IMG/VR virus record: IMGVR_UViG_3300037307_000721
Origin: a virus
Length of the DNA: 64,000 nucleotides
Reading direction: 5' to 3' (one strand)
Positions 27,688 through 42,463 of this stretch are shown here, one piece after another. The position numbers and the translations under genes are program-made. The notes under the pieces were generated by a model. The model saw only the letters and a program-made list of their open reading frames with translations, searched no databases and was not told the DNA's origin. The stretch's first letter is position 1. Each line of letters starts with the position of its first letter.

Positions 27688-28371
27688 TCAGCTCCCCTTC
27701 AGTCCAAGGCGCATGTCGAACATCGTTGCGACGAAGTCCGGCGCCCACTGCGCGATCTGGTCGAACGTCTGGCCCCAGATGGGTCTCGCCGGGATCCAGG
27801 TCGAGATGGTCTGGCCCGTGTACTGATGCGGCAGGTGCCCGCCGGAAGCGCGGCCGACAACCTGCCCGTACAGCACCCGCAGGTAGTGGCGCATGCGCAG
27901 GGTCACGGGGACCGTTCGCACGAACCCGGTCTCCTGGAGCGCCGCGATCCACGACAGCGGAATCGTCTGGCCTCCGGAGAAGGCTCCCTTGATTCCCGCG
28001 AGCACACCGACGACGAAGCGGAGCGGTGCCATCTTCTCGTAGTCGATCGCCTTGGCGAGCTCTCCACTACGACGAAGGGGCCGCGCCGACGGGTACGCCG
28101 GGATCGGCGGCCATACCTCGCCCTGCGTCTTGCCGATCCTGTACTTGCTGCGCGACCCGAACGCGAGAGGCGGCTGGGCCGAGCCCTGCGAGACGGCCGC
28201 GGACACCGATAGCGTCGCACGCTGTGCGAGCTCTTCGAGCACTTGCGACAGAGCGGACTTGGTCCGCTCGCGAATCGTCTTCGGAGTGGCCTGCGCCTCG
28301 GCCATGCCCTTCATCTCGAAGCGCAAGTCGATCGAGCCGATAGAACCCGTGACGAGCGTCGAGCTTGCCAT
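27688..28371 (-). CDS. Neck/tail completion protein (HK97 gp10 / virion morphogenesis-like)
   Basis: Start moved to ATG 28371 (overlaps the upstream TGA). PLRRSGELAKAI and IPARPIW motifs. Confidence 0.7.
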   Translation of the reverse strand: MASSTLVTGSIGSIDLRFEMKGMAEAQATPKTIRERTKSALSQVLEELAQRATLSVSAAVSQGSAQPPLAFGSRSKYRIGKTQGEVWPPIPAYPSARPLRRSGELAKAIDYEKMAPLRFVVGVLAGIKGAFSGGQTIPLSWIAALQETGFVRTVPVTLRMRHYLRVLYGQVVGRASGGHLPHQYTGQTISTWIPARPIWGQTFDQIAQWAPDFVATMFDMRLGLKGS

Positions 28372-28898
28372 CAGGTCACCTTCTCGCGATCGGCCAGGTA
28401 CGCCAGGTATAGGTCGGTCCCGTCGACGCCGAAGCCGAACGAGGCCGGCTGGAGCTCCACGATGTAGAGCCCAGGCGGGTCGATGTGCACCGTCGGTACG
28501 CGCGGCTGCTTGAAGGATTCGATCGCCGAGATACGATCGTTGACCTTCAGCAAGAGCTTCTTCGTGCTCTTGTCGACCAGCTTCAGGCGCTTGAGGTCTG
28601 TCCGATGAAAGACGAGCGTGAAGCCCGTCTGCGGATCGTCGCCGGGCGGCACCTGGGCCAGACGCTCGAACCTGATCATCTCGACCTGACAGGGGATGCG
28701 AATGGCAGGCAGCTCGCTGCGCGCGTTCTCGCGCACGGTCTTGCCTTGGCGCGTGGCGTCGTAGGTGACGGGCTCGCGAAAGTCCTTGTCGTAGCCACTC
28801 GTCTGTCCAGCGGGTTGAAGCGAGCGAGTCGCCGACGGATTCAGTCGATGAACCACCGCGAGCGACTTCTCGAGAACGAGTGGTACGCTGAAGGGCAT
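28371..28898 (-). CDS. Head closure (stopper)-like protein
   Basis: 175 aa. GYDKDFREP...LKVNDRI...LYIVELQP. Position fits. Confidence 0.65.
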   Translation of the reverse strand: MPFSVPLVLEKSLAVVHRLNPSATRSLQPAGQTSGYDKDFREPVTYDATRQGKTVRENARSELPAIRIPCQVEMIRFERLAQVPPGDDPQTGFTLVFHRTDLKRLKLVDKSTKKLLLKVNDRISAIESFKQPRVPTVHIDPPGLYIVELQPASFGFGVDGTDLYLAYLADREKVT

Positions 28899-29959
28899 TA
28901 GCCGGCCACCCCCACGTGCGGAGGCCGGCAGTAACCGAGGAGGATGTTGTCGAGCCGCGGATCACCCGTCAGGCTCGAGCCCGGATCGCCCGCTGAGCCT
29001 GACGTGTCGAACTGAATCTGCTGGTCACGGGTCTTGGCCATCTTGACGCGACCCGGATTTTGCAGCATGGGATCGAGGCCCAACGGGTCCTGGAGCTGGC
29101 GGTAGGCCAGTCCCAGGATCACCTCTTGGAGCTGCAACGGCACCTGGCCGAACGGGCCACCGTCGGGATCGGTGTAGCCGAACACGCCAGTGATGAGCAC
29201 GTTCTTCGCACCCTCCGGGAATCGCGACACCGTCGGAAGTTCGCCCTCGGGCGTCGAGCCCACGAGCTGGATCTTCGGGTTGTCGCGATCGTCCGGGGAC
29301 AGAAGGTGCGTCAGATGACGATTGAAGATGCGCACCATCGAGATGTCGAGCTGGTAATCGGTCGGCGTCGTCACGTACAAACCGGAGATCTCCAGCGAGA
29401 TGGCGCCAACGCCGACGATGGGCTCGTCCAGCCAGACCTGGGAGCTGTCCGGACGCACGGTGTGCTTGATCGTCATGTACCGCGGGAAGAAGAACCGACC
29501 CGTGAGCCTCTCCACGTTTCGCGACGCGACCTCGATCGCCTTCTGCCGCTGCTCGAGAGAGAAATCCTCGAAGGCCTCGTGGTCCGAGCCCAGATAGGCC
29601 ACGTAGCGAGAGCTCACGCGGAAGTACTTCGGGTTGAGCACCTCGAAGCGGTACGCCGTGGAGACCTCCGCATCCGAGGACTCAGCCTTGTAGTACCAGA
29701 CGATCTCGTACGGTCCTGGGTCGAGACCCAAGGCCGCGGGGTCAAGCGGCGCGACGTAGTAGCCCAGCGCCTTGTGGTTGCCGCCGTGCTCGCACGGGTC
29801 GAGGTTCACCGTGGCCTCGTGGACCTTCACGCCAGAGCTCACGAAGTAGACCTCGAAGCGCAGAGCGGCAACGTCCTCGAGAAATCCGTCTTGCTGGTAG
29901 AAGAACGGGAGGAGTGGATTGGCGCAGGAGGATGCCTCTCCCTTCACGATGCCGGGCAT
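28898..29959 (-). CDS. Head-tail adaptor/connector protein
   Basis: AIEVASRNVERLTGRFF, FPEGAKNVLITGVFGYT, VPLQLQEVIL. Confidence 0.78.
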   Translation of the reverse strand: MPGIVKGEASSCANPLLPFFYQQDGFLEDVAALRFEVYFVSSGVKVHEATVNLDPCEHGGNHKALGYYVAPLDPAALGLDPGPYEIVWYYKAESSDAEVSTAYRFEVLNPKYFRVSSRYVAYLGSDHEAFEDFSLEQRQKAIEVASRNVERLTGRFFFPRYMTIKHTVRPDSSQVWLDEPIVGVGAISLEISGLYVTTPTDYQLDISMVRIFNRHLTHLLSPDDRDNPKIQLVGSTPEGELPTVSRFPEGAKNVLITGVFGYTDPDGGPFGQVPLQLQEVILGLAYRQLQDPLGLDPMLQNPGRVKMAKTRDQQIQFDTSGSAGDPGSSLTGDPRLDNILLGYCRPPHVGVAG

Positions 29960-31369: not shown

Positions 31370-32293
31370 CTACGCGCCCTTGATGTTGATGCCCTTCACC
31401 ACCGCGTTCGCCTCGGCCAGCTTCACGTCGAACCGGACGGTCGCGACGATGATGACCACGCCCGCGGAGATGTCCTCGTCCACCTTCAGCCGGATCTGCC
31501 GCAGCACGCCCAGGTAGATGCCCGACGGGTCCGTGAGCAGCGCCTGGGTGTTGGAGGACAGGTCCACCGGGAACTCCGGCACCGCGTTGACCGGCATGTC
31601 GGCGTACTTCGCCACGTCGGACTGCTGGAGCATCGCGTCGCCGAGGCCGGTGGCGCGGTCCGCCAGGGAGTCCTTGTAGTCGATCCGGGCCTGCCGGTTC
31701 GTGAAGTACTGCATGCCGCCCAGCATGGCGAACTCGTCCGGCATCATGCGGAGCATGTCGCGCAGGATGGTCTTGGACAGCTTCGCCCCGGAGGCGTTGA
31801 CCGACCAGACGTTCGCCTGGACCAGGATGCCGTCCAGCTTGGCCAGCACGGGGTCGGTGGAGGTGACGTCGCCGTTGATGGCCACCCACTCCATGTCGCG
31901 GCCGATGGCCGCGGAGAGCTGCTGCATGAGGGTCTCGCGGAAGACGCCGCGCTCGATCTGGTCCTCGAGGACCTCGTCGGAGAGCCGGACCTCGGCCTTG
32001 AAGAGCTGAGCGTCCAGCGTGAACATCCCGAGCGCCGGCTTGGCCCAGGCCGCCGACGGCAGGGCCGTGGCCTCCTGGCCCGCACGCAGCACGCGGGAGG
32101 CGAAGCGCATCTTGTCGCGCTCCTCCTTGAAGTTCTTCATCGGAGTGACCGTGACCATCTTGAGGAGCACGGGCTCCTTGATCGCGAGCTGGATGAACTC
32201 GCTGGCCTGCGCTGGTTGAAGCAACCCACCTGCCGCGAAGTCAGCGACCGCGATCTCGGCCTTCCGGAGGAGGGTCCTGTTTTCCGTCGACAT
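31370..32293 (-). CDS. Major capsid protein (HK97 fold, PBSX XkdG/P2-like)
   Basis: GGLLQPAQASEFI, LSDEVLEDQIE, AIGRDMEWVAINGD, ALLTDPSGIYLGVLRQIRL. AGGAGG SD. Confidence 0.93.
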   Translation of the reverse strand: MSTENRTLLRKAEIAVADFAAGGLLQPAQASEFIQLAIKEPVLLKMVTVTPMKNFKEERDKMRFASRVLRAGQEATALPSAAWAKPALGMFTLDAQLFKAEVRLSDEVLEDQIERGVFRETLMQQLSAAIGRDMEWVAINGDVTSTDPVLAKLDGILVQANVWSVNASGAKLSKTILRDMLRMMPDEFAMLGGMQYFTNRQARIDYKDSLADRATGLGDAMLQQSDVAKYADMPVNAVPEFPVDLSSNTQALLTDPSGIYLGVLRQIRLKVDEDISAGVVIIVATVRFDVKLAEANAVVKGINIKGA

Positions 32294-32352: not shown

Positions 32353-33993
32353 CTAGTTGCCCTTGCTGGCGCTTGCGCGCTTGGCCAGGGCCTCGCGGTA
32401 GGCGGGCGAGTTGAAGTTGTCCGGGAACAGCGGCGGTTCGACTTCCCCGCCACCATCGGTCGAGCCCTCATCCCCGGTCGAAGCCGGCGCCTGCACGGTC
32501 CCGCGGGCCTTCGCCACGAGGGTCTGCAGCTCGCCGATCTGCTTCTGCATGGCCTCCATCTTGGCCAGGAGCTCGGCGTTGGGGTTGTCCTTCGGCGGCT
32601 CGGTGACCGGCGCGGGCTCGCCGGCGGCCGGCGGCTCGGTGACCGGCGCGGCGGTCGGGGCCGGCTCGGCCTGGACCGGAGCGGGCTCGGCCGGCGCGGC
32701 CGCCTGGGCCGGCGCCGGGGCGGGCTCGCCCTGGCCGTCGGCCTTGATCATCTTGTGCTTGGCGAGCTGCTCCTCGAAGTCGGCCAGGAAGCGATCGACG
32801 CTGAGCAGCGAGCCCAGGTCGGCGAGCTCCATGTCGCCCGACTTCTTGATGCCCGGGTACTTCTCGATGAGCCCCTGGAGCAGCGCGGTGATCGCCTTCA
32901 TCTCCTTGATGGCCCGGGCCTCGTTGAAGCCCGACAGCTGGGCCTTCTTCGAGAGGGAGAGCGCGCGCTCGGCCACCTCACGCAGCGTGACCGCGAAGCG
33001 GTTGGCGGCCTTCTCGATCTTGTCGGGCAGAGCGGCCCCCAGGGCCTCGACGGTGTTCAGCACGGCGCCCACCTCGGCGGCCACGGGCTCCGCCAGGGTC
33101 TCCACCGTCTCCTCGTCGTCGGCCACCTTCGAGACCAGGCCCAGGCGCTCGGCCACCTCGCGAAGCACGGAGACCGCGGCCTCGGCGACCTTGTCGTCGT
33201 CCGGGTCCTCGGCGCTCATCACCTCGGGCAGCGCCGCCGCGGCCTCGCTCTTGGCCACCTTGTAGTCGGTGGCGAAGGTCTTGAGCGTGCTCACCAGGTC
33301 CTTGACCTTGGCGATGGTCTCGGGGGCGACCTTGCCGCGGCCGCACTCGCCGGCGAGCGCGAGGGCGGTCTGGGCCACGCTCTTGAGCTGCTTGGCCGGC
33401 GACATCTTCTTGCCCTTGCCCTTGTCCTTCTCGTCGCCGGGAGCGCACGGCGCCGCGGCCTTGGCCGCCGGGGCCGGGTAGGACCCGTCCCCCGAACCGG
33501 GGCTGGGATACTTCTCGCAGACGCCCTTGAGCACACCGATGAGGCTCTGGGCCTCGTCGTTGAGCTTCTTGACGTCCATCTTGGCGCCCTGCTCCTCGAG
33601 AGCCTTGGCGATGGAGAGCGCCTTCTCGGCGACCTCGCGGAACGCCGCGGCGGCCGCGCCCGCCTTCTCGATGTCGACGGCCTGGGGCTCGCCGGCGCCG
33701 GTGGTGTCCTTCTGCAGCTCCGTGACCAGAGCCCCGATCTGGGTCGTCATGCTCTCCAGAGCCGCCGCAGCCCTCTCGAGCTCAGACGCCGTCTCGGGGG
33801 TGTGAAGCCCACCTTCGCCTTCGATGAGCTCCGGCCCCATGTTCTCGTTCGACATTGCGTCCTCCTTAAAGACGATGAACCTCCGCTTGTTAGCGGCTCT
33901 GTCGACTAGATCGACCTTGTAGGGTTCGATTTCACTCAGCCGTCGCTGCTTTCGACCGTCCGGCACTTTACGCGAGTCAAACGGCATCGTCAA
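32353..33993 (-). CDS. Scaffold-like protein with helical repeats; two possible in-frame starts (33993 and 33855)
   Basis: N-terminal V(D/S)LVDRAANKRRF motif of phage scaffold/protease proteins, Ala/Glu helical repeats, Pro-rich C-terminus. Directly upstream of the capsid gene. Confidence 0.8.
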   Translation of the reverse strand: MTMPFDSRKVPDGRKQRRLSEIEPYKVDLVDRAANKRRFIVFKEDAMSNENMGPELIEGEGGLHTPETASELERAAAALESMTTQIGALVTELQKDTTGAGEPQAVDIEKAGAAAAAFREVAEKALSIAKALEEQGAKMDVKKLNDEAQSLIGVLKGVCEKYPSPGSGDGSYPAPAAKAAAPCAPGDEKDKGKGKKMSPAKQLKSVAQTALALAGECGRGKVAPETIAKVKDLVSTLKTFATDYKVAKSEAAAALPEVMSAEDPDDDKVAEAAVSVLREVAERLGLVSKVADDEETVETLAEPVAAEVGAVLNTVEALGAALPDKIEKAANRFAVTLREVAERALSLSKKAQLSGFNEARAIKEMKAITALLQGLIEKYPGIKKSGDMELADLGSLLSVDRFLADFEEQLAKHKMIKADGQGEPAPAPAQAAAPAEPAPVQAEPAPTAAPVTEPPAAGEPAPVTEPPKDNPNAELLAKMEAMQKQIGELQTLVAKARGTVQAPASTGDEGSTDGGGEVEPPLFPDNFNSPAYREALAKRASASKGN

Positions 33994-34164: not shown

Positions 34165-37100
34165 CTAGTCGAGGTTGGCGGCGAGCGCGAAGCCCTCGAT
34201 GCTCCAACCGGTGAGCCGGCCATCCTTGACAGCCTGCCAGAGCGCATCGTCCAGGACGCGCGCGGCCAGGAGCCAGGTGCCCTTCTTGACGAAGTGCCCG
34301 TCGAGGTGCAAGTCCGTCGGGGCGATGTAGCTCTCCAGCACGCGGACCTTGTCCCGGGCGAGCGTGCGCTGGTGCATGAGCCCGAGACGCTGCGTCTCCT
34401 CCATGAAGTAGAACGCCGCCTTGCGCACCGATTCAGCGTCGTAGATGTCGCCCTGGCTGTCGAACTCGTCCGGGACGAGCACGACTCCGAGAACGTAGCG
34501 CTCGTCTTCCTGCTTCACGAGCTCGACCCGATGCGAGCACGCGCCGAACGACTTCGCCAGCGCGTCCGAGTACTCGTCTGCCGACTTCTTCAGCTCGCCT
34601 GAGCCGAGCATCTCGTGCACGTCCTTCAACGACGAAGGACCGCCGTCGGCCTTGTCGACGACGACGGGCGTGAAGCCACGTAGGCGCTTCTTCTCCGCGT
34701 TGGACTCGTCCCAGAGGATCTCGGTCACCTCGATTCGGATGACGTCGCCGACCTTGGCCGCGACCTTCGTGTTGAACGTGCGGCCCGCCTTCACGTAGGT
34801 CTTCCCCGCGACCTCGACGGTCTCGGCCCAGGACCCTGCCTCCTTGCCCGACACGGGGCCAACCGCATAGAAGAAGTTGTGCACACCGGGCGAACCCTTG
34901 ACCGGGTGCGCGTCCCAGATGATGCCGCGGATCTCGCGAATCATCTTGAGCTTGGCCCACGAGTCGGTCTCGCGCAGCGTGACCGTGCTCTGGCTGCTCT
35001 TGAACATGGCGCCCTCGGACCCAATGTACCGACGAGCCCATTCGATCGCCGAGCGCAGCTCCTCCTTGTTGCGGACGAGCTTGTGCGGCACGTAGACGAG
35101 CCGTGTGAAGTCGTGCCCGCGCAGGAAGTCGCGAAGCAGCGCGTTGCGCTCCTCGAGAGGCTTCGCAACCACGTTGCCCTTCTTCGGGTGGTACAGGATG
35201 TCGAACACACGCACTCTGGCGCCCTTGTCCTCGGCCGGGGTCCGGCCGCGAAAGGTGGCCAGCTCGCGACGAGGTACCGGGCCACCGCCCGGCTCGAGCG
35301 CCGTGAACTCGGCATCGAGGATGAATGGTCCGGGCAGCTTGTCGAGCTCCTCCTTCAATCCAGGGAGCTGGTCGATCATGTTGGTGATCGGCGTCTTGCG
35401 ATCCCAGATGTCCTCGGTGATCATCAGGTAGCGGCCGTCCTCGGTCTTCTGGATCGAGGAGCGGAAGCCGTTGAACTTGGGCTCGACTAGGATGCCGCTC
35501 TTGAGCATCTCCGGCGTGGCGAAATCGGTGAACAGCCTATCGAGCTCGTTGGAACGGAACTCGTTCGACTCTCTGCTCGCCGTCTTCATCGGCTTGTAGA
35601 TCGCGAAGGGGCGCAGCCGTTCGCGATCGTGAGTCTTGTCGTCGCCCGGCTTGATGGTCTTCGGATCCCACACCTGCACGTCGGCGATCTTCTTGCCCGA
35701 GGCCAAGGTGATGGTCTCGAGCTTCTCCGCCTTCTCGATGCCCGCGGGAAGCTCGTGCGTGTGACCCTCGGGCTTGTCGTGCGCGTGCCCACGCGCGGGC
35801 TTGACCTTGCGCCCGGAGATCTCGTGCGTGTGGTCGTCCGCCCGGCGCTCCGACCCCTCGCTGATGACGGTGTCGGTCGTCTTGCCATTGCCCTGCGCAT
35901 CGACATGGAAATGGTGCGCATGTCGATGGCTTCGCCCGGCCTCACCCGTCATCGGGGCCGCCGCGCGCTGCACGGGCTCGCCCACGCCCTCGCTCTTCTC
36001 CCAGATCCAGATGGAACCCTCACCAGTCTCCTTCGTCTCGGCACGAAGCACGAGCAGGCCAGAGAGGCCCTTGGGCAAGTCCTTGCCCTTGAGCTTGAAC
36101 TTCTTGAACGCCGGCCCGTCCTCGAGGAACTCGATCGAACCACGAGCCAGGACGGAGATGGACGACGGCGTGTCCTTGGTCGGATTGAGCTCGAGGCCGC
36201 CATAGGACTTGCCCGGCTCCACGTCGCCATCGAGCTTCAAGAGCTCGCCGGCGCCCGCGCCTGTCGCCATCCGATGCACACCGGAGACGCGCTGGCCCGA
36301 GCTCGGGTCCTCCAAGAGCTGGAAGTCCTCGACCTTACCTCCTCGGTCGATGAAGAGGTGGTAGAGCATCCGGCTCGGTGCGGCCCGGATGACCTGCTGG
36401 CCCTTCCAGCGCTGCCAGGACAACGTGAACGGCGCCGAGCTCACGCCCTCCGCTTTTTCTTGACAGGTGAGAGTCTCACCTGTATCGTGGATGGCGGTGG
36501 GCGGGCGAGGCATGTTGCTAGGGCTATGCCCTGTCGCCTCGGTCGGCTCGTAGAGGTAGTACTTCGTCACCACCCGGCGGAACTCGTGGTCGACCAGCTT
36601 CACGTTGCTCGGCGTGAAGAAGTGCTCGGCGACAAGGGCATCGCGAATCTGCTTGCGCTCCTTCTCGTCCTTGGCGTGCCAGTACTGGAACTCCTTGGGC
36701 ACGACGGCCTTGAGCTTGGGTGGTAGGTAGGAATAGCCCTGGGGCGGGATGCGTCCGACCTCGACGGCGCGTGGCTTGAGCACCGAAGGCACCAGGTCCT
36801 TGGCGAACATGGCGACCCAGAAGGGCACGCCCTTGGGCATCTTGCGGCCGGCCTCGACCTCGGGGTCCGAGGGCTTGCCAGCCTCGGAGACCAGGAGCCG
36901 GAAGGTGAGCAGCCCGGAGAACTTGGGGTCCTTCTCGAGGAAGTACTCGTGGAAGTAGGGCGTCCGCTCGCCCCAGGTGACCCGCGGCTCGGCGAGGATC
37001 ACCATGACGCCCGCCTCTTCGCGAGTCGCGCCCACGGTCCCGGGCTCGAAGGCTTCCTCTACGCCCAGCCATTGCTTGGGCTCGGGAGCCTTCGTGGCCG

Positions 37101-39558
37101 CGTAGACCCGGTTGGGCGCGTTGAAAGGCTTGTTCCAGGACGAGCCCTCGACGCTGAAGGTGGCACCGATCTTCTTGGCCTCGGGCAGGGTGTTCACGTC
37201 GGGGACCTTGCCGGCGACCTGCATGGCGAGCGTGTAGCCGATGAGATAGCCGTTGGCGGCGATGCGGAAATCGCCGTGCACGCTCTTGCCCCGGAAGTGC
37301 GCCTGCAGCACAGAGCGCATCGGCTTCTCGCTGTGCGGCGGCTTGAGGAACGGGTCCTCCTTGGCCATGAGCTCGGCGATCGGTTCGACAGGGAGGTCCG
37401 CCTCTCGCATCTCCACGATCGTCTGGTAGTCGTCGCGCCGGCGCACGACGAGGTCGTAGATGGGCACGTTGGCGGTGAAGGGACCGGCCAGGCCGCTCGC
37501 CACATCGTCATCGTCTTTGCCGATGACGCCGCCGTGGAAGGACATGCGCTGCGAGATCTCCTCCGGCATCATGCGGCCGATGCGAAACTTCACGATGTGG
37601 CTCGTGGCTGGATCGAGCGGGCCGCGAACGAGCATGTCGACGTCGTTCTTGGTCACACCGTTGTTGGCCGTCGAGCCCACGATGTAGACAAAGGGGCTGC
37701 GGAGCAGGAACTCCTTGTGAAAGTGCGGCAGGAGCTCCTTGAGCGTGAGCTCGGGGAACTCGCCGTCGCTGCCCGGATGCACCGGGGCGTAGCGGTCGCT
37801 GGGCCCGGCCTTGTAGAGCGAGGCGAGCTGGGCCGGGTTCGGGATGGCGATGCCGCGACGCTTCAGCTCCTCCTCGATGAAGACGATGCCGTTCTCCACG
37901 TCCTCGCGAGAGAGGCCGCCGCCCGCGGTCGTCTTGCCCTCGGCGAAGACCGTCTCGAGCAACTGCTTCGCCTGCGCGTAGAGAGCCAGCAGCACGCCAT
38001 CGTCCATGCCCTTGAGCGCGTTGGGCGTGAGCCCGCGGAAGCTCATCCAGGGCTCCTCGTCCTCCGCGGGCGGGTCTTCGGCCTTCTTGAGTGCGGCGGG
38101 CAGCTCGATGACGGGACCGTAGCGACGCGAGAGGAGAGGCTTGGCGAGCTGCAGCGGCGGATCGTAGGCCGCCACGAGGTGCATCTTCATGTAGAAGACG
38201 GGGCCCTCGGTCGAGAACTCCTCCCGGGAGAACTTGTCGATGCCGGCGAGGACTTCCGCTGGCAGCTTGCTCATGTCCTCGTACTCGGCGCCCTCATTCA
38301 GGGTGATCACGCCCCAGACGTACTGGGCGCCCGCCTTGGTGGGCTGCACCTCGTTGAGCAAGAACTGGCGCTGGCCCACGCGGCCAGTGCGGCGCAGGCG
38401 AGAAAGGACGCCCGTCTCCTCGTCCGCCTTGAGTCGGCGCAGGTTGAACGCCGGGTCGGGCAGCTTCAGAGTCGGCAGTTTGCCCTTGGGCTGCTCGGCC
38501 ATGGCCACCTCGACGAACGTCTCGTCCTCCCGAATGGGCTTGAGGCCCTGAGCATCCAAGATGTAGAGCGCATCGGGGGCGAGGCCGGACGGCGCCCAGT
38601 CCTTGCCGATCGTGGCGCCCTCCTGGCCGAAGCTCTCCTCGAGCTCGAGGAAGGCCTCCAGGTAGTCGATGGCGTCCTCGGTGAGAGCGAGCGCCCGGGT
38701 CTTCTCGGGCAACGAGCCGACCGTGCGATGCAGCTGCTCGAGCAGGCGCTCGGCCAGGATGAACGGGTTGCCCATGTTCACGGGCGCCGGCGCCGCGACG
38801 CCGAGCATGTCGGCGACCTCGCTGTAGGCGGCGGTCAGCATGGGCCCGATCTGCCCCAGGGCTTTGAGCAGGCGCTGGGCGTGGCCGACGGGCTCCATGA
38901 GCCTTTCGGCCTGCTCGCAGATGTCCGGCATGCGCTGGGCGAAGGCCTGCGCCAGGCCGAGCGCGCGCTGGACGGCAGCCTTCTGGGGCCGGGTCATGCC
39001 GGCGAGCTCTTCGGCCTTGGGCGAACGCTTGAAGCGCGGCTCGAGCACGAAGGTCTGTGCACCCTGCGGGGCTTCCCATGCCTTCGGCTTGTCGAAGGGC
39101 TCGAGCTCCTCGATGCGATAGGCATAGAGACGACGAGCCTTCGGCCACCACTTCTTGCGCTCCTCCTCGGTGATCTTGTGCTGCGAGCGGAGCCGACGGA
39201 ATTCGGCGAGCGAGATGGGCTTGGGCTTGGCCAGCGACATCACGCCGTACACGAACTCCTTGTCGCCGAAGTAGAGCTTCTCGCCGACGACGTTGTAGAC
39301 GCGCGCGTGCACGATGAGCTTCTTCGCTCCCTCCCACACGAGCTTGGCATGCGGCTCGACCAGGATACGAAGGCGCCTCGGCTTGTCGTCTGAGACCTGA
39401 GAAGTCGCCGCCAGGGGCACGTCGGCCGTCGTGATCTCGTCCTTGGCAATCTCCGCCTTGATGGCGGCCGTGCGCACGAGCCGGGAAAGGCCTTGCAGGC
39501 CAGTCGCCAGCTGCTCCAGGCGCTTGCGAACGTCGTCTCTGCTGTTCCGTTCCATCAT
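34165..39558 (-). CDS. Multidomain polyprotein: 2x ASCH/PUA-like, Pol-beta nucleotidyltransferase, 2x LigD-type 3'-phosphoesterase, HxH repeats, ATP-dependent ligase + OB, XkdF prohead protease
   Basis: Ligase motifs EPKFNG, FILDAEF, RVFDILY, EGAMFK, WAKLK. XkdF motifs RYVLGVVLVPDEFDSQGD, GLMH, TGWSIEG. NTase VGS-x8-DVD. PE motif QAH..HGDFR. Confidence 0.85.
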   Translation of the reverse strand: MMERNSRDDVRKRLEQLATGLQGLSRLVRTAAIKAEIAKDEITTADVPLAATSQVSDDKPRRLRILVEPHAKLVWEGAKKLIVHARVYNVVGEKLYFGDKEFVYGVMSLAKPKPISLAEFRRLRSQHKITEEERKKWWPKARRLYAYRIEELEPFDKPKAWEAPQGAQTFVLEPRFKRSPKAEELAGMTRPQKAAVQRALGLAQAFAQRMPDICEQAERLMEPVGHAQRLLKALGQIGPMLTAAYSEVADMLGVAAPAPVNMGNPFILAERLLEQLHRTVGSLPEKTRALALTEDAIDYLEAFLELEESFGQEGATIGKDWAPSGLAPDALYILDAQGLKPIREDETFVEVAMAEQPKGKLPTLKLPDPAFNLRRLKADEETGVLSRLRRTGRVGQRQFLLNEVQPTKAGAQYVWGVITLNEGAEYEDMSKLPAEVLAGIDKFSREEFSTEGPVFYMKMHLVAAYDPPLQLAKPLLSRRYGPVIELPAALKKAEDPPAEDEEPWMSFRGLTPNALKGMDDGVLLALYAQAKQLLETVFAEGKTTAGGGLSREDVENGIVFIEEELKRRGIAIPNPAQLASLYKAGPSDRYAPVHPGSDGEFPELTLKELLPHFHKEFLLRSPFVYIVGSTANNGVTKNDVDMLVRGPLDPATSHIVKFRIGRMMPEEISQRMSFHGGVIGKDDDDVASGLAGPFTANVPIYDLVVRRRDDYQTIVEMREADLPVEPIAELMAKEDPFLKPPHSEKPMRSVLQAHFRGKSVHGDFRIAANGYLIGYTLAMQVAGKVPDVNTLPEAKKIGATFSVEGSSWNKPFNAPNRVYAATKAPEPKQWLGVEEAFEPGTVGATREEAGVMVILAEPRVTWGERTPYFHEYFLEKDPKFSGLLTFRLLVSEAGKPSDPEVEAGRKMPKGVPFWVAMFAKDLVPSVLKPRAVEVGRIPPQGYSYLPPKLKAVVPKEFQYWHAKDEKERKQIRDALVAEHFFTPSNVKLVDHEFRRVVTKYYLYEPTEATGHSPSNMPRPPTAIHDTGETLTCQEKAEGVSSAPFTLSWQRWKGQQVIRAAPSRMLYHLFIDRGGKVEDFQLLEDPSSGQRVSGVHRMATGAGAGELLKLDGDVEPGKSYGGLELNPTKDTPSSISVLARGSIEFLEDGPAFKKFKLKGKDLPKGLSGLLVLRAETKETGEGSIWIWEKSEGVGEPVQRAAAPMTGEAGRSHRHAHHFHVDAQGNGKTTDTVISEGSERRADDHTHEISGRKVKPARGHAHDKPEGHTHELPAGIEKAEKLETITLASGKKIADVQVWDPKTIKPGDDKTHDRERLRPFAIYKPMKTASRESNEFRSNELDRLFTDFATPEMLKSGILVEPKFNGFRSSIQKTEDGRYLMITEDIWDRKTPITNMIDQLPGLKEELDKLPGPFILDAEFTALEPGGGPVPRRELATFRGRTPAEDKGARVRVFDILYHPKKGNVVAKPLEERNALLRDFLRGHDFTRLVYVPHKLVRNKEELRSAIEWARRYIGSEGAMFKSSQSTVTLRETDSWAKLKMIREIRGIIWDAHPVKGSPGVHNFFYAVGPVSGKEAGSWAETVEVAGKTYVKAGRTFNTKVAAKVGDVIRIEVTEILWDESNAEKKRLRGFTPVVVDKADGGPSSLKDVHEMLGSGELKKSADEYSDALAKSFGACSHRVELVKQEDERYVLGVVLVPDEFDSQGDIYDAESVRKAAFYFMEETQRLGLMHQRTLARDKVRVLESYIAPTDLHLDGHFVKKGTWLLAARVLDDALWQAVKDGRLTGWSIEGFALAANLD
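36460..36488 (+). promoter_or_regulatory. Antisense sigma70-like promoter TTGACA-N17-TATCGT with embedded 10-bp inverted repeat (36463-36483)
   Basis: Exact -35, 17-nt spacer, TAnnnT -10. ACAGGTGAGA g TCTCACCTGT fills the spacer. Lies in a low-GC3 linker of the polyprotein gene. Confidence 0.6.
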
Positions 39559-39616: not shown

Positions 39617-40057
39617 CTAGGTCGGGGTCCAGATGCGAGAGCCAGGCTTCGGTGGATCGAAGGCCTTGCCGTCGAGCTCGGCGCGAAGCGCGTGGCCCAT
39701 CAGGTCGAGGGTCTGCTCGAGCGAGTAGCCGACGTCTCCACGTGCGTGCCTGATCCAGTTCTCGCAGATCTTGAAGCGGCGCTTGACCTCGCTGACGGTC
39801 GGCTTGGTGTAGCCGAACGGGTTGCGCCGGACGTCTTCGGCGAAGCTTCGCCAGATCACGCCCTCGAGCGTCTCGAAAACCCGGCGTAGGTCATCGTCGC
39901 TCTTGACCAGCGCGGCGAACGGCTTGCGGTCGAACTCGAGCTGCGGGACTCCGTCCTCGGCCAGCTTCTTGGTGATCTCGACGCGCTCGTCCACCTTCTT
40001 CGCGCTCTCCACCTCACTCTCGACGAATTGCTCTACTGCTTCCTTTACCTCGCTCAT
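39617..40057 (-). CDS. Hypothetical protein between portal and protease polyprotein
   Basis: True start ATG 40057 (ATGA overlap with the portal stop, AGGAGG SD). 146 aa. Confidence 0.75.
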   Translation of the reverse strand: MSEVKEAVEQFVESEVESAKKVDERVEITKKLAEDGVPQLEFDRKPFAALVKSDDDLRRVFETLEGVIWRSFAEDVRRNPFGYTKPTVSEVKRRFKICENWIRHARGDVGYSLEQTLDLMGHALRAELDGKAFDPPKPGSRIWTPT

Positions 40058-41847
40058 TGAGCATCCTCCTCGGTCAGGCCGCCGCCGATGGCTTGCAACG
40101 GCGTGCCGGCCCGACGGATCTGGAGCGGCGCGGGCGCGGGCCCGCGGTTCATGTCCGCCTCGGGTGGCACGGACTCCTCCGGTTTCACCGGCACGGGGCT
40201 CGTGCCGATGCCAAGCTGATCTGGACTCGTCGCAGTGTGCAGCTGCGCCAGGATGTAGGGCAGCGGCTTGTTCGTCCACTCCTCTGCGAGGTCCTCGAAC
40301 GTGCGGTTGAAGATGTCTGCGCAGAGCTCGCGCGCCTCGGAGATCATCAACACGCCGGCCTTGACCAGGTTGACGACCATCTCGGCCATGGCCTCTGGGT
40401 CGCGCACGATCGGCGAGTTCGAGCGGAAGATCCAGAACGTGATGTCGAGCTCGGGGAAGAGCTCGCGGTTGATGAACGAGTCGAAGTGCTCGCGCTCCGG
40501 CTCGAAGACCTGCTCCTCGGCGAACTTGAGCGCGGCGTAGGCCGTGGCGCGGTTCATCTGCTTGTCGTCGCCGCGCAAGATGCGTGGCAGGCGGAAGGCA
40601 CGCGCCACCTTCTCCTCGTTGCGCACGTCGTAGTTCTGGAACAGCGCGTCCTGCAGCTGCGCGTCGCGCAGCGGTACGAACATGACCTTGGGCACCGTGC
40701 GTGGCCCGACGTCCCCGGCGCCCTTCTGGCTCTCCGCCTCGAGGACCAGGATGCGGTGCACGCTCTTCTTGCCCTTGAGGTGCTCCTCGATGAACTCCTC
40801 GATCTTGGTGGCCACGCCCTTGCCGAGACGGCCACCGGATACGAGCAGCGCCAGTGGAGGCACGACGTTGTTCTTGAAGTAGTTGAGGTTGACCTCGTCG
40901 AGCTCGCGGCTGCCCATGACGCCGGGCAGGTTGGAGATCCACCGCGGCACACCGTAGGGCGTGTCCGGGGTGAAGATCGCGAAGTGCGCGATCTCCGTCG
41001 CCGGCGCGACGCCGGGCTCTTTCGCCTCGAGGTCCTCGATGGACTCGTAGTACTTGCCGCTCTTCTGCGAGACCACGCGCGGGTCGCCGAACTGCTTGAA
41101 GTAGACCGTCTTGCCGCGCGGCGCGAGCTTGACGTACCGGCGGAAGTGCTTGCGTACCTTGTAGCTCCGCCAGGTGATGTCGGTGACCTTGGCCTTCTCC
41201 TCGACGACGATGGGCTCCTCGTCTTCCTTGAGGAGGCGCATGTTCATCGGGTTCGCGTAGTAGATGCGCGAGACCTCGCCGAGGGCGTTGCGCACGATCT
41301 CCCAGAAGGCATTGCCCAGGACTTCGTAGTCCTGGCGCGTGCGCCGTCGGAGCTCGATGAAGGAGAAGGTGGGACAGACGTAGGAGAAGAAGGCCTTGAG
41401 CCGCGAGTACTCGATGCGCGCGACGCGCCGGAGCTCCTCGATCTTGGCCCCCACCTCCTTCGGGTCCGGCGGCATGCCTGAGGCGGACGCCCCGCCCCGG
41501 TCGTGCGCGTCGAGCGCGTCCTCGTAAAGCATTGCGTCTGAGACGCGCTCGGGCGCCCCCTTGCCGGCGAGGTCGATCGAGGGCACCAGATGGTGCCCAA
41601 ACGAGTCGATGTTCGTCACGTAGGCGTCGATGTTGGGACGCAGGATGGTCGACTGCTCGTAGAGCGTGTACAACTTCTTGAAATCGTAGGGAGGAGCGAG
41701 CGCACCGCCTGGCAGGTTGCCCTCCTTCGACGCGAGGAAGTCGAGCAGCTCCGTTGTCCGGCGCTCGCCACTCCCCAGAATCTCGGCCTTGACGATGGGC
41801 GCCGGGGCCCCTCTCTTGCGAACCACTCTTCGGGTTTTAGTCGCCAC
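40054..41847 (-). CDS. Portal protein (PBSX XkdE-like)
   Basis: DYEVLGNAFWEIVRN, TPYGVPRW, NLNYFKNNVVPPLALLVSGG, KVARAFRLP. Start moved to GTG 41847 (GGAG SD, downstream of the promoter). Confidence 0.92.
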   Translation of the reverse strand: MATKTRRVVRKRGAPAPIVKAEILGSGERRTTELLDFLASKEGNLPGGALAPPYDFKKLYTLYEQSTILRPNIDAYVTNIDSFGHHLVPSIDLAGKGAPERVSDAMLYEDALDAHDRGGASASGMPPDPKEVGAKIEELRRVARIEYSRLKAFFSYVCPTFSFIELRRRTRQDYEVLGNAFWEIVRNALGEVSRIYYANPMNMRLLKEDEEPIVVEEKAKVTDITWRSYKVRKHFRRYVKLAPRGKTVYFKQFGDPRVVSQKSGKYYESIEDLEAKEPGVAPATEIAHFAIFTPDTPYGVPRWISNLPGVMGSRELDEVNLNYFKNNVVPPLALLVSGGRLGKGVATKIEEFIEEHLKGKKSVHRILVLEAESQKGAGDVGPRTVPKVMFVPLRDAQLQDALFQNYDVRNEEKVARAFRLPRILRGDDKQMNRATAYAALKFAEEQVFEPEREHFDSFINRELFPELDITFWIFRSNSPIVRDPEAMAEMVVNLVKAGVLMISEARELCADIFNRTFEDLAEEWTNKPLPYILAQLHTATSPDQLGIGTSPVPVKPEESVPPEADMNRGPAPAPLQIRRAGTPLQAIGGGLTEEDAQ

Positions 41848-41887
41848 CTGATAGTTCTCCCGCATTCTGGAAGGAAGTTCTGCGGCT

Positions 41888-41916
41888 ATGATAGTTAGAG
41901 TGCTCTGGACAGTCAA
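41888..41916 (-). promoter_or_regulatory. Sigma70-type promoter for the head-tail operon (TTGACT-N17-TATCAT)
   Basis: Near-consensus hexamers with 17-nt spacing, about 40 nt upstream of the portal GTG. Confidence 0.7.
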
Positions 41917-41986
41917 ACCCATTTCGTGGCAGCATGTGGACGTCTAAGTCGCAAGCTCGACTTGCCCAAACTGCGGAGGATCTTCC

Positions 41987-42463
41987 ATGACAACGATGCT
42001 TGCCCACGTCCACAAGCCGTGCGCCATCCGGCAGCAAATCAAGGCGGGCAGCCAGTTCGACGGTCTGGCGCCGGCGGACGGGGCCACCGCTCTGGACCCG
42101 GCAGCCAGCCTGGACTACTTCAACTTCGACCCGGGCACGCACGGGGGGCTCTTCGACCCCACGGCGAGCTACTACAGCTTCTACGAGCGGGACGCCTTGA
42201 ACCTGCTCGGGATGGACTTCAAGAGCGGGGGCCAGTCAAGCTGGAGTCTCTCGCTCGTCGACAAGTTCGGCACCGAGTACGTCATCTGGAGTGGGACCAC
42301 CGGGGACACGGTGCAGGGACCCTCGGCCGCGAGCGGACCCGTCATCCTCATCTGGGGGACCAAGCTGAAGTTCGTCACCGTCGGTGCCTCAGCCGCCATG
42401 GTGTGCACCATCAAGCTCGGGCCGCAGGAGTGGTGCATCGAAGACTCAGACCGTGCCGTGTAG
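41987..42463 (+). CDS. Hypothetical beta-rich protein
   Basis: 158 aa, GGAGG SD, high GC3. Confidence 0.65.
   Translation: MTTMLAHVHKPCAIRQQIKAGSQFDGLAPADGATALDPAASLDYFNFDPGTHGGLFDPTASYYSFYERDALNLLGMDFKSGGQSSWSLSLVDKFGTEYVIWSGTTGDTVQGPSAASGPVILIWGTKLKFVTVGASAAMVCTIKLGPQEWCIEDSDRAV

Follow-up and report, generated by a model that had tools for sequence, protein, structure and literature searches.

A prohead protease fused to a LigD-like set of candidate break-repair domains in a viral head module

Why should enzymes that process and seal nucleic-acid ends be made in one chain with a capsid maturation protease? The question is raised by open reading frame (ORF) P0001, which encodes 1797 amino acids (aa) within 64,000 nucleotides of DNA from a virus (IMG/VR virus record IMGVR_UViG_3300037307_000721); the whole of this analysed stretch is called the window below. 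An earlier note, made from the sequence alone, had read this ORF as a prohead protease fused to a complete end-repair toolkit. Based on Pfam, Foldseek, VIA (a structure aligner independent of Foldseek), and motif alignment, its list of domains was essentially correct, and all of its coordinates coincide with the domains located here. We consider the product to be a polyvalent head protein that would be loaded into the prohead by docking of its XkdF protease domain to the scaffold, and whose break-repair enzymes would be injected with the phage DNA; we place about equal weight for and against this explanation.

Two domains in the C-terminal part of the protein were identified directly by Pfam, both as the earlier note had proposed. 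Residues 1681-1791 matched Peptidase_S78_2, the XkdF family (E 3e-25, 89.1 bits against a cut-off of 24), and PHROG likewise returned a head maturation protease. Residues H1729 and S1786 are invariant in sets of 18 and of 45 sequences, and the gene lies between the portal gene and the scaffold and capsid genes, as expected for a protease of this family; a family-profile search of structures identified no solved homologue of XkdF by sequence. Residues 1350-1538 matched DNA_ligase_A_M (PF01068; E 6e-13, 49.3 bits against a cut-off of 26.2), and the family profile aligned to the structures of human LIG1 (E 1e-8) and Mycobacterium tuberculosis LigD (E 2e-4). Ligase motifs I, IIIa, IV, and V are kept in all 15 ligase-bearing homologues, and motif III is also present. 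The OB fold expected after the ligase is probable: the segment is suitably placed, contains a motif VI-like DK, and aligns to the ligase of the archaeal virus ANMV-1; however, Pfam DNA_ligase_A_C had no match in this region (aa 1546-1640).

Scans of single segments with Pfam, NCBIfam, and PHROG found nothing for the ASCH, nucleotidyltransferase (NTase), first and second phosphoesterase (PE1 and PE2), HxH, or OB regions, so fold comparison was needed for the rest of the chain. In an AlphaFold2 model of aa 575-1010, the predicted local distance difference test score (pLDDT) is above 90 over aa 739-1004. When PE1 was compared with the PDB using Foldseek, the best seven matches were all LigD PE. 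VIA aligned PE1 with 3p4h over 117 of 118 residues (Z 15.5, root-mean-square deviation 1.9 A) and with the Pseudomonas aeruginosa LigD PE (3n9b, Z 13.2); the next-best match after the LigD PE chains fell to Z 5.5. The Foldseek E values ranged from 6e-7 to 8e-4, and a search of the ESM Atlas returned LigD_N clusters (TM 0.70 by target). Across 18 homologues, every residue named in H754-x6-H761-x-D763-x-R765 and in H870-E871 is either invariant or kept in at least 90%. With one extra residue between the first two histidines, they reproduce the metal- and phosphate-ligand pattern of LigD PE, His-x5-His-x-Asp-x-Arg plus a later His (H42, H48, D50, R52, and H84 in P. aeruginosa).

Sequence profiles gave far less for PE1. 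Pfam LigD_N (PF13298) had no match to the 1797-aa protein at E up to 10; among relatives, the matches were sub-threshold (13.8 and 11.6 bits on the motif, 24.8 bits), with E 1e-6 in 2 of 49, and only one viral protein in BFVD has the PE fold. Judged by its fold and conserved residues, we propose that PE1 is an active LigD-type 3'-phosphoesterase; the LigD-type assignment agrees with the earlier note. The 84-residue extension that follows the barrel is conserved to the same degree as the barrel itself and was detected in many shorter XkdF fusions.

The second PE of the earlier note is supported less strongly. Using the family profile, PE2 matched the LigD PE chains 3p4h and 3p43 (E about 0.1), and BLAST aligned it to PE1 of ANMV-1 (E 0.002); however, the catalytic His/Asp/Arg set is absent, so we read PE2 as probably an inactive duplicate. 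For the NTase, 17 of 18 homologues keep the motif VG[SG]-x9-DxD together with YD702L, a language-model search led to NTP_transf_2/Polbeta clusters, and the region shares 34% identity with the N-terminus of the ANMV-1 protein. Pfam had no match to this region, and the only chains matched by VIA were minimal NTases (1no5, 8xeh, 1wot, and 1ylq) at Z 3.6-4.3, in a part of the model with pLDDT 50-70. The assignment of aa 613-708 as a probable minimal NTase of the Pol-beta fold agrees with its motifs, including D702 as the third carboxylate, and is supported more weakly by its fold.

In an AlphaFold2 model of the N-terminal 590 residues (mean pLDDT 80.7), the ASCH domain near the start of the chain was recognised as the earlier note had described it. 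The top nine Foldseek matches of this domain (ASCH1) were eight chains of a Zymomonas ASCH protein and TTHA0113, presumably also an ASCH/PUA-like protein (E 4.5e-5 to 8.5e-4). Over aa 57-155, VIA aligned it with the Zymomonas ASCH protein (5guq, Z 11.3) and with YqfB (9kyf, Z 10.4, 93 residues aligned, root-mean-square deviation 2.3), followed by others at Z 8.8 and 7.9. Pfam, including PF04266, had no match to ASCH1, and a motif of the GxKxxExR type was not found. Because the Lys after the Gly of that motif is not conserved in the family consensus, the sequence suggests a binding module rather than a hydrolase. In the degenerate second copy (ASCH2), strands and helices follow one another as they do in ASCH1, and its hidden Markov model (HMM) cross-matches the ASCH1 region in one related locus (L004); however, hhalign of ASCH1 against ASCH2 was weak (E 0.02, low probability), as was that of PE1 against PE2 (E 0.06, low probability), and the case for both duplications therefore rests on the other evidence given here. 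A four-helix bundle between the two ASCH domains matched ferritin/Dps structures at a VIA Z of about 10, which is under the aligner's threshold for helical folds, so it was treated as generic.

The HxH repeats are real and vary between homologues; they may bind metal, and in one homologue (P0012) a longer His-rich segment takes the place of the ligase core. Two positions, aa 495 (near nucleotide 38070) and aa 1034 (near nucleotide 36455), are insertion hot spots at which homologues carry 40-230 extra residues. Inserts at aa 1034 often contain Cys pairs, and single homologues match Pfam zinc-ribbon families there.

If the chain is cargo for the head, a route into the prohead is required, and the next gene offers a candidate. 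This gene encodes a scaffold-like protein that begins with a conserved motif, in which V28, A32, N33, and K41 are invariant in 38 sequences. An HMM of the motif identified it in 77 of 82 loci. The ORF that follows the XkdF ORF begins with it in 70 of these, whereas in the other 7 the motif and XkdF share one chain, with the motif immediately on the N-terminal side. Read from sequence, this distribution amounts to a gene-level permutation of the motif and the protease. Complex prediction for XkdF (aa 1650-1797) with scaffold residues 1-66 gave an ipSAE of 0.85, compared with 0.01 for the best control; of 80 solved complexes, 58 attain the mark used, as do 2 of 110 mismatched pairs, counts that apply here only approximately because the prediction was made with custom alignments. 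The runs agreed in at least 72% of contacts, with a partner pLDDT of at least 51. In the predicted complex, scaffold residues 13-38 cover S1786, residues 1724-1729, and D1704-Y1706 on the active-site face of XkdF. The model thus supports binding of the scaffold N-terminal motif by XkdF; such docking, if real, would mean that scaffold-driven assembly takes the protease into the prohead along with its cargo of 1675 residues. The proposal of the earlier note that the protease targets the whole chain into the prohead gains partial support from this prediction, from the fusion of motif and XkdF in 7 loci, from the head gene order, from the presence of only one XkdF domain in the window, and from relatives that carry other early-acting cargo (Dam methylase, Tad3, and InPase).

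Eighteen proteins, drawn from JGI, ENA, and Logan assemblies and 1027-2181 aa long, have this architecture in common, and full-length homologues in independent assemblies are 36-64% identical to the 1797-aa protein. We used phmmer to search aa 575-1010 against 1.84 billion representatives of clusters at 50% identity; this conserved core occurs in 938 clusters at E <=1e-3 and in 178 at E <=1e-30, mostly in proteins of 400-2241 aa. Among 49 sampled relatives of the core, XkdF was found in 27, ligase in 22, Dam methylase in 5, AdoMet decarboxylase in 2, and pyrimidine-dimer glycosylase in 1, and single relatives add the Thoeris inhibitor Tad3, inteins, or a metallo-beta-lactamase domain. In 45 proteins with a C-terminal XkdF fusion, the cargo included Dam methylase (19), ligase (9), InPase (4), SAM methyltransferase (2), and 2H phosphoesterase (1). 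The Dam methylase, glycosylase, and Tad3 of these relatives are DNA-directed or early anti-defence functions. Within the IMG/VR loci that were examined, XkdF is mostly the C-terminal domain of ORFs of 150-2310 aa, where it follows variable cargo, and in 7 loci it is N-terminal, in a chain ordered motif-XkdF-scaffold.

Inteins (Hint plus LAGLIDADG) were located in two homologous polyproteins, P0049 (aa 374-1031) and P0119 (aa 1482-1535), and in the former the Tad3 domain lies just ahead of the ligase. A search of 50,697 phage records identified no cultured phage that has the full architecture. The 'DNA methyltransferase-XkdF' fusions expected in cultured Pseudomonas phages are actually 151-aa proteins that consist of XkdF only; these misnamed proteases include phiPsa374 gp161 (L084:4974-5429) and those of PPSC2, VCM, and PHROG_1530, and their name probably came from metagenomic Dam-XkdF fusions in the same PHROG.

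On the minus strand of the window, the gene order is portal, a 144-aa ORF, the 1797-aa ORF, scaffold, and capsid (Table 1). A 154-kb metagenomic contig has the same gene order around an 1818-aa homologue with 59% identity, followed by T4 gp19-type tail genes, so relatives with the same domain order between portal and capsid, which the earlier note had suggested looking for, do exist. Its interpretation would have been undone if the 1797-aa ORF were chimeric through misassembly or arose by reading through separate genes; we found no point in favour of this and assign it a negligible probability, because the same domain order and synteny recur across many independent samples and assemblers. A head-tail adaptor (phrog_442, 28898-29959) and phrog_14218, which is conserved with no assigned function (28371-28898), lie downstream of the capsid gene, also on the minus strand. 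The AT skew switches sign near position 42000, and the portal gene is the first of the leftward head operon; no terminase gene adjoins the portal gene in the window, and ORFs on either strand at 42.9-44.9 kb had no Pfam or PHROG match.

Table 1. Positions of the domains of the 1797-aa protein and of the neighbouring head genes in the window
Feature	Nucleotides	Strand	Residues	Remarks
Whole ORF (P0001)	34165..39558	-	1797 aa	Intact reading frame; polyvalent protein, cargo enzymes then prohead protease
N-terminal long helix	39430..39543	-	aa 6-43	Poorly conserved; AlphaFold2 secondary structure
ASCH/PUA-like domain 1 (ASCH1)	39079..39381	-	aa 60-160	Fold comparison; language-model lead
Four-helix bundle	38587..39015	-	aa 182-324	Generic ferritin/Dps-like shape; AlphaFold2 pLDDT about 90
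Second, divergent ASCH-like beta domain (ASCH2)	38095..38487	-	aa 358-488	pLDDT above 90
Short helical module (helB)	37849..38025	-	aa 512-570	Accompanies the NTase in relatives L006, L047, L059
Minimal Pol-beta-fold NTase	37435..37722	-	aa 613-708	G628-S629, D639, D641, D702
PE1, LigD-type 3'-phosphoesterase barrel	36799..37323	-	aa 746-920	H754, H761, D763, R765, H870, E871
PE1 conserved extension	36547..36798	-	aa 921-1004	84 residues; motif IPPxGxSxLPxxL..VPxxFxYW; pLDDT 93-97; invariant residues
PE2, degenerate second PE-like domain	35974..36432	-	aa 1043-1195	Without the His/Asp/Arg set
His-rich HxH repeat stretch	35749..35946	-	aa 1208-1270	Varies between homologues
ATP-dependent ligase nucleotidyltransferase domain	34924..35553	-	aa 1336-1545	K1361 in EPKFNGFR; motifs I, III, IIIa, IV, V
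Probable OB domain of ligase	34639..34923	-	aa 1546-1640	Motif VI-like DK at aa 1635-1636; aligns with C-terminal part of ANMV-1 ligase
XkdF (Peptidase_S78_2) prohead serine protease	34168..34533	-	aa 1676-1797	D1700, D1704, H1729, S1786 invariant
Portal protein	40054..41922	-		Pfam PF04860, E 1e-20; PHROG_12; upstream in head operon
Scaffold N-terminal docking motif	33865..33951	-		Consensus RLxDIxVxEVSLVDRAANKRxFLxVKR; here KQRRLSEIEPYKVDLVDRAANKRRFIVFK; docking predicted
Scaffold-like protein (P0020)	32353..33993	-	546 aa	A/E/K-rich, helical; between protease and capsid genes
HK97-fold major capsid protein	31370..32293	-		Pfam PF05065, residues 22-301 of 307; without delta domain

Taken together, these features would be compatible with the following course of events. 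The XkdF domain would bind the conserved motif at the N-terminus of the scaffold, which is the product of the next gene, and procapsid assembly driven by the scaffold would bring the protease and its fused cargo into the prohead. There, the protease would degrade the scaffold and probably cut its own linkers, whereas the folded enzyme domains would remain inside with the DNA and enter the next host together with it. In the new host, PE1 would clean 3' ends, the NTase would perhaps add a nucleotide, and the ligase would seal breaks in the phage's own DNA; such breaks could stem from damage gathered outside the cell or from host nucleases.

Several observations weigh against this scheme. Pfam identified no 5'-kinase in the 1797-aa protein, no LigD_Prim-Pol or other archaeo-eukaryotic primase match in this protein or in 18 homologues, and no Ku (PF02735) in four related viral records, one of which is 100% complete. 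With no 5'-kinase, no templated polymerase, and no Ku in the four records, only some kinds of breaks could be repaired. The same absences, of the kinase, of a LigD-type polymerase, and of Ku in those records, make the 'complete' toolkit of the earlier note an overstatement; the enzyme set fits 3'-end cleaning, possible nucleotide addition, and sealing. One related, complete viral record has direct terminal repeats, so the sealing of cohesive ends is not an obvious need. Ligase motif I is K[FWY]NG[FW]R across the family, with Asn in place of the canonical Asp (KxDGxR). The docking is a model score, and the pair looks like one domain that has been split or permuted; pairs of this kind tend to pass. 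Finally, linkers show no enrichment of the cleavage pattern h-x-K-[ASEDQG] (6 of 29 Lys there, compared with 23 of 102 in domains), and we rejected it as a linker cleavage code for this lack of enrichment. All six linker sites (K492, K583, K733, K1276, K1658, and K1669) are conserved, and as cleavage sites they are a lead only.

Part of this evidence bears on which nucleic acid is repaired. The cargo might instead mend RNA, whether tRNA of the host or RNA of the phage, after cleavage by anticodon nucleases or HEPN-type RNases; Pnkp and Rnl1 of T4 heal and reseal RNA in this way. The ASCH superfamily has links to RNA, and among the structural matches of ASCH1 are a ribonuclease-type ASCH protein and YqfB, an ac4C amidohydrolase. 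LigD PE is known to act on 3' ribonucleotides, motif I reads KxNG and not KxDG, a few relatives weakly match Pfam RNA_ligase, and the XkdF fusion with a 2H phosphoesterase points the same way. However, classical ligation of RNase products requires the 5'-kinase that was not found here, the ligase matches DNA_ligase_A_M and LIG1/LigD and is followed by a probable OB domain, and the co-occurring Dam methylase and pyrimidine-dimer glycosylase act on DNA. Because the co-occurring cargo is DNA-directed and the kinase is absent, we prefer DNA over RNA as the likely substrate, and we regard RNA repair as unlikely.

The site of action can be questioned in the same manner. The enzymes could work in the producing cell or in the filling capsid, sealing nicks or processing ends around packaging, with no delivery to another host, and the fusion would then do no more than bring them to the head; the position of the gene in the head module and the predicted scaffold docking would suit this, and the ANMV-1 module adjoins the portal gene with no protease. 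A pre-adenylated ligase can, by established chemistry, seal one nick without ATP. Yet the capsid interior is without nucleotides or ATP for the NTase or for repeated ligation, and the Tad3 of relatives makes sense only in a new host, as does, more weakly, their Dam methylase; we therefore consider action without delivery to the next host improbable. It is very improbable, in our view, that the N-terminal 1675 residues are bulk core or scaffold material degraded at maturation, with the enzyme folds as relics. Large parts of the chain are helical, the inserts at aa 495 and aa 1034 vary, and both PE2 and ASCH2 look degenerate, but the catalytic residues of PE1, NTase, ligase, and protease are invariant or nearly so at 36-64% identity, and a separate gene for a 546-aa scaffold is present.

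If capsid loading through the scaffold followed by delivery is the correct explanation, the family would represent a modular, natural form of capsid cargo loading used by hundreds of lineages. Enzymes delivered with the DNA would give phages break-healing and break-sealing chemistry before any gene expression, a new counter to nucleases and environmental DNA damage beside the known injected methylases and inhibitors. More broadly, we tentatively suggest, as a possibility that falls somewhat short of even, that the capsids of tailed phages, and that of an archaeal virus with the modules permuted, contain a ready-made, Ku-independent, LigD-like repair set (3'-phosphoesterase, Pol-beta NTase, and ligase) for genome self-repair or against nucleases. 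Loading would follow a general mechanism in which XkdF clamps the split-off scaffold motif and so brings in whatever cargo is fused upstream of it. The predicted XkdF-scaffold motif provides a testable rule for the entry of enzymes into HK97-type capsids and could be reused to load chosen proteins. The family, despite its size, is almost unannotated, and two kinds of database names are corrected here: 'DNA methyltransferase' for the XkdF-only proteases and 'MutT-like hydrolase' for a portal protein.

The portal protein in question belongs to ANMV-1, in which AJP62005.1 (L001:1913-3193), named 'MutT-like phage hydrolase,' matches Phage_portal_3 (E 3e-22) and is for this reason assigned as the portal. 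Directly after its gene lies that of an 866-aa 'ATP-dependent DNA ligase' (KP703175, AJP62006.1), with NTase, ligase-OB, PE1 with its extension, and PE2 all homologous to those of the 1797-aa protein (28-34% identity). In contrast to the 1797-aa protein, the modules come in a permuted order in which the ligase separates the NTase from PE1; ASCH and XkdF are lacking, and ligase motif I is the canonical KFDG. The gene downstream of it (1166 aa) had no Pfam match. A second point of comparison is the canonical XkdF-type protease-scaffold protein, a motif-XkdF-scaffold chain (e.g., in loci L077 and L079-L082) with the same protease domain, the same N-terminal motif, and the same position between portal and capsid. 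Whereas the motif is part of that chain, here it sits in the next gene along with the scaffold, which leaves the N-terminus of the protease domain free for about 1675 residues of cargo.

Bacterial LigD is a ligase of nonhomologous end joining that has PE, POL, and LIG domains and Ku as its partner. The 1797-aa protein likewise holds, in one chain, a 3'-phosphoesterase of the same fold and catalytic pattern, an ATP-dependent ligase, and a putative nucleotide-adding domain. However, the last of these is a minimal Pol-beta-fold NTase and not an archaeo-eukaryotic primase-polymerase, Ku is missing from the four related viral records, motif I is KxNG, there is an extra, degenerate PE, and ASCH domains and a capsid protease are joined to the same chain. 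By analogy, the cargo would work like LigD without being LigD.

The class of protein to which the ORF belongs was described in 2017 by Iyer, Burroughs, Anand, de Souza, and Aravind (PMC5512222), whose passages on polyvalent phage proteins place an assemblin-like peptidase always at the C-terminus and predict that such proteins are delivered with the DNA and processed into separate units. The 1797-aa protein, with at least two disparate catalytic domains and a C-terminal assemblin-like peptidase, agrees with their definition, and it shares with these proteins the joining of many unrelated enzyme domains in one chain, the head gene neighbourhood, and the prohead-type peptidase end; Dam methylase, InPase, 2H, and Pol-beta NTase, all carried by relatives here, are also on their list. 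Thus, the remark in the earlier note that the architecture had not been characterised holds for the cargo but not for the class. We count the ligase, LigD-type PE, and ASCH cargo as new, since the terms 'DNA ligase,' 'LigD,' and 'ASCH' have 0 occurrences in a term search of PMC5512222, and the only ligase discussion in its relevant passages concerns ATP-grasp RNA ligases. Within those passages, the XkdF-scaffold docking motif is likewise not described, and the cargo described here is a break-healing and break-sealing set, in contrast to effectors against host proteins.

A wider comparison is with capsid-targeted proteins that are injected, namely T4 Alt and the internal proteins, P1 DarA and DarB, the SPN3US ejection proteins, and the N4 virion RNA polymerase (reviewed in PMC7697877, PMC7411985, PMC12810830, PMC12373910). 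As proposed for the 1797-aa protein, these are enzymes that enter the prohead, where its protease often trims them, and that begin to act as soon as the next infection starts. Whereas they depend on short targeting peptides or partner proteins, the cargo described here is covalently fused to the protease itself, and its predicted link to the scaffold is a split N-terminal motif of XkdF.

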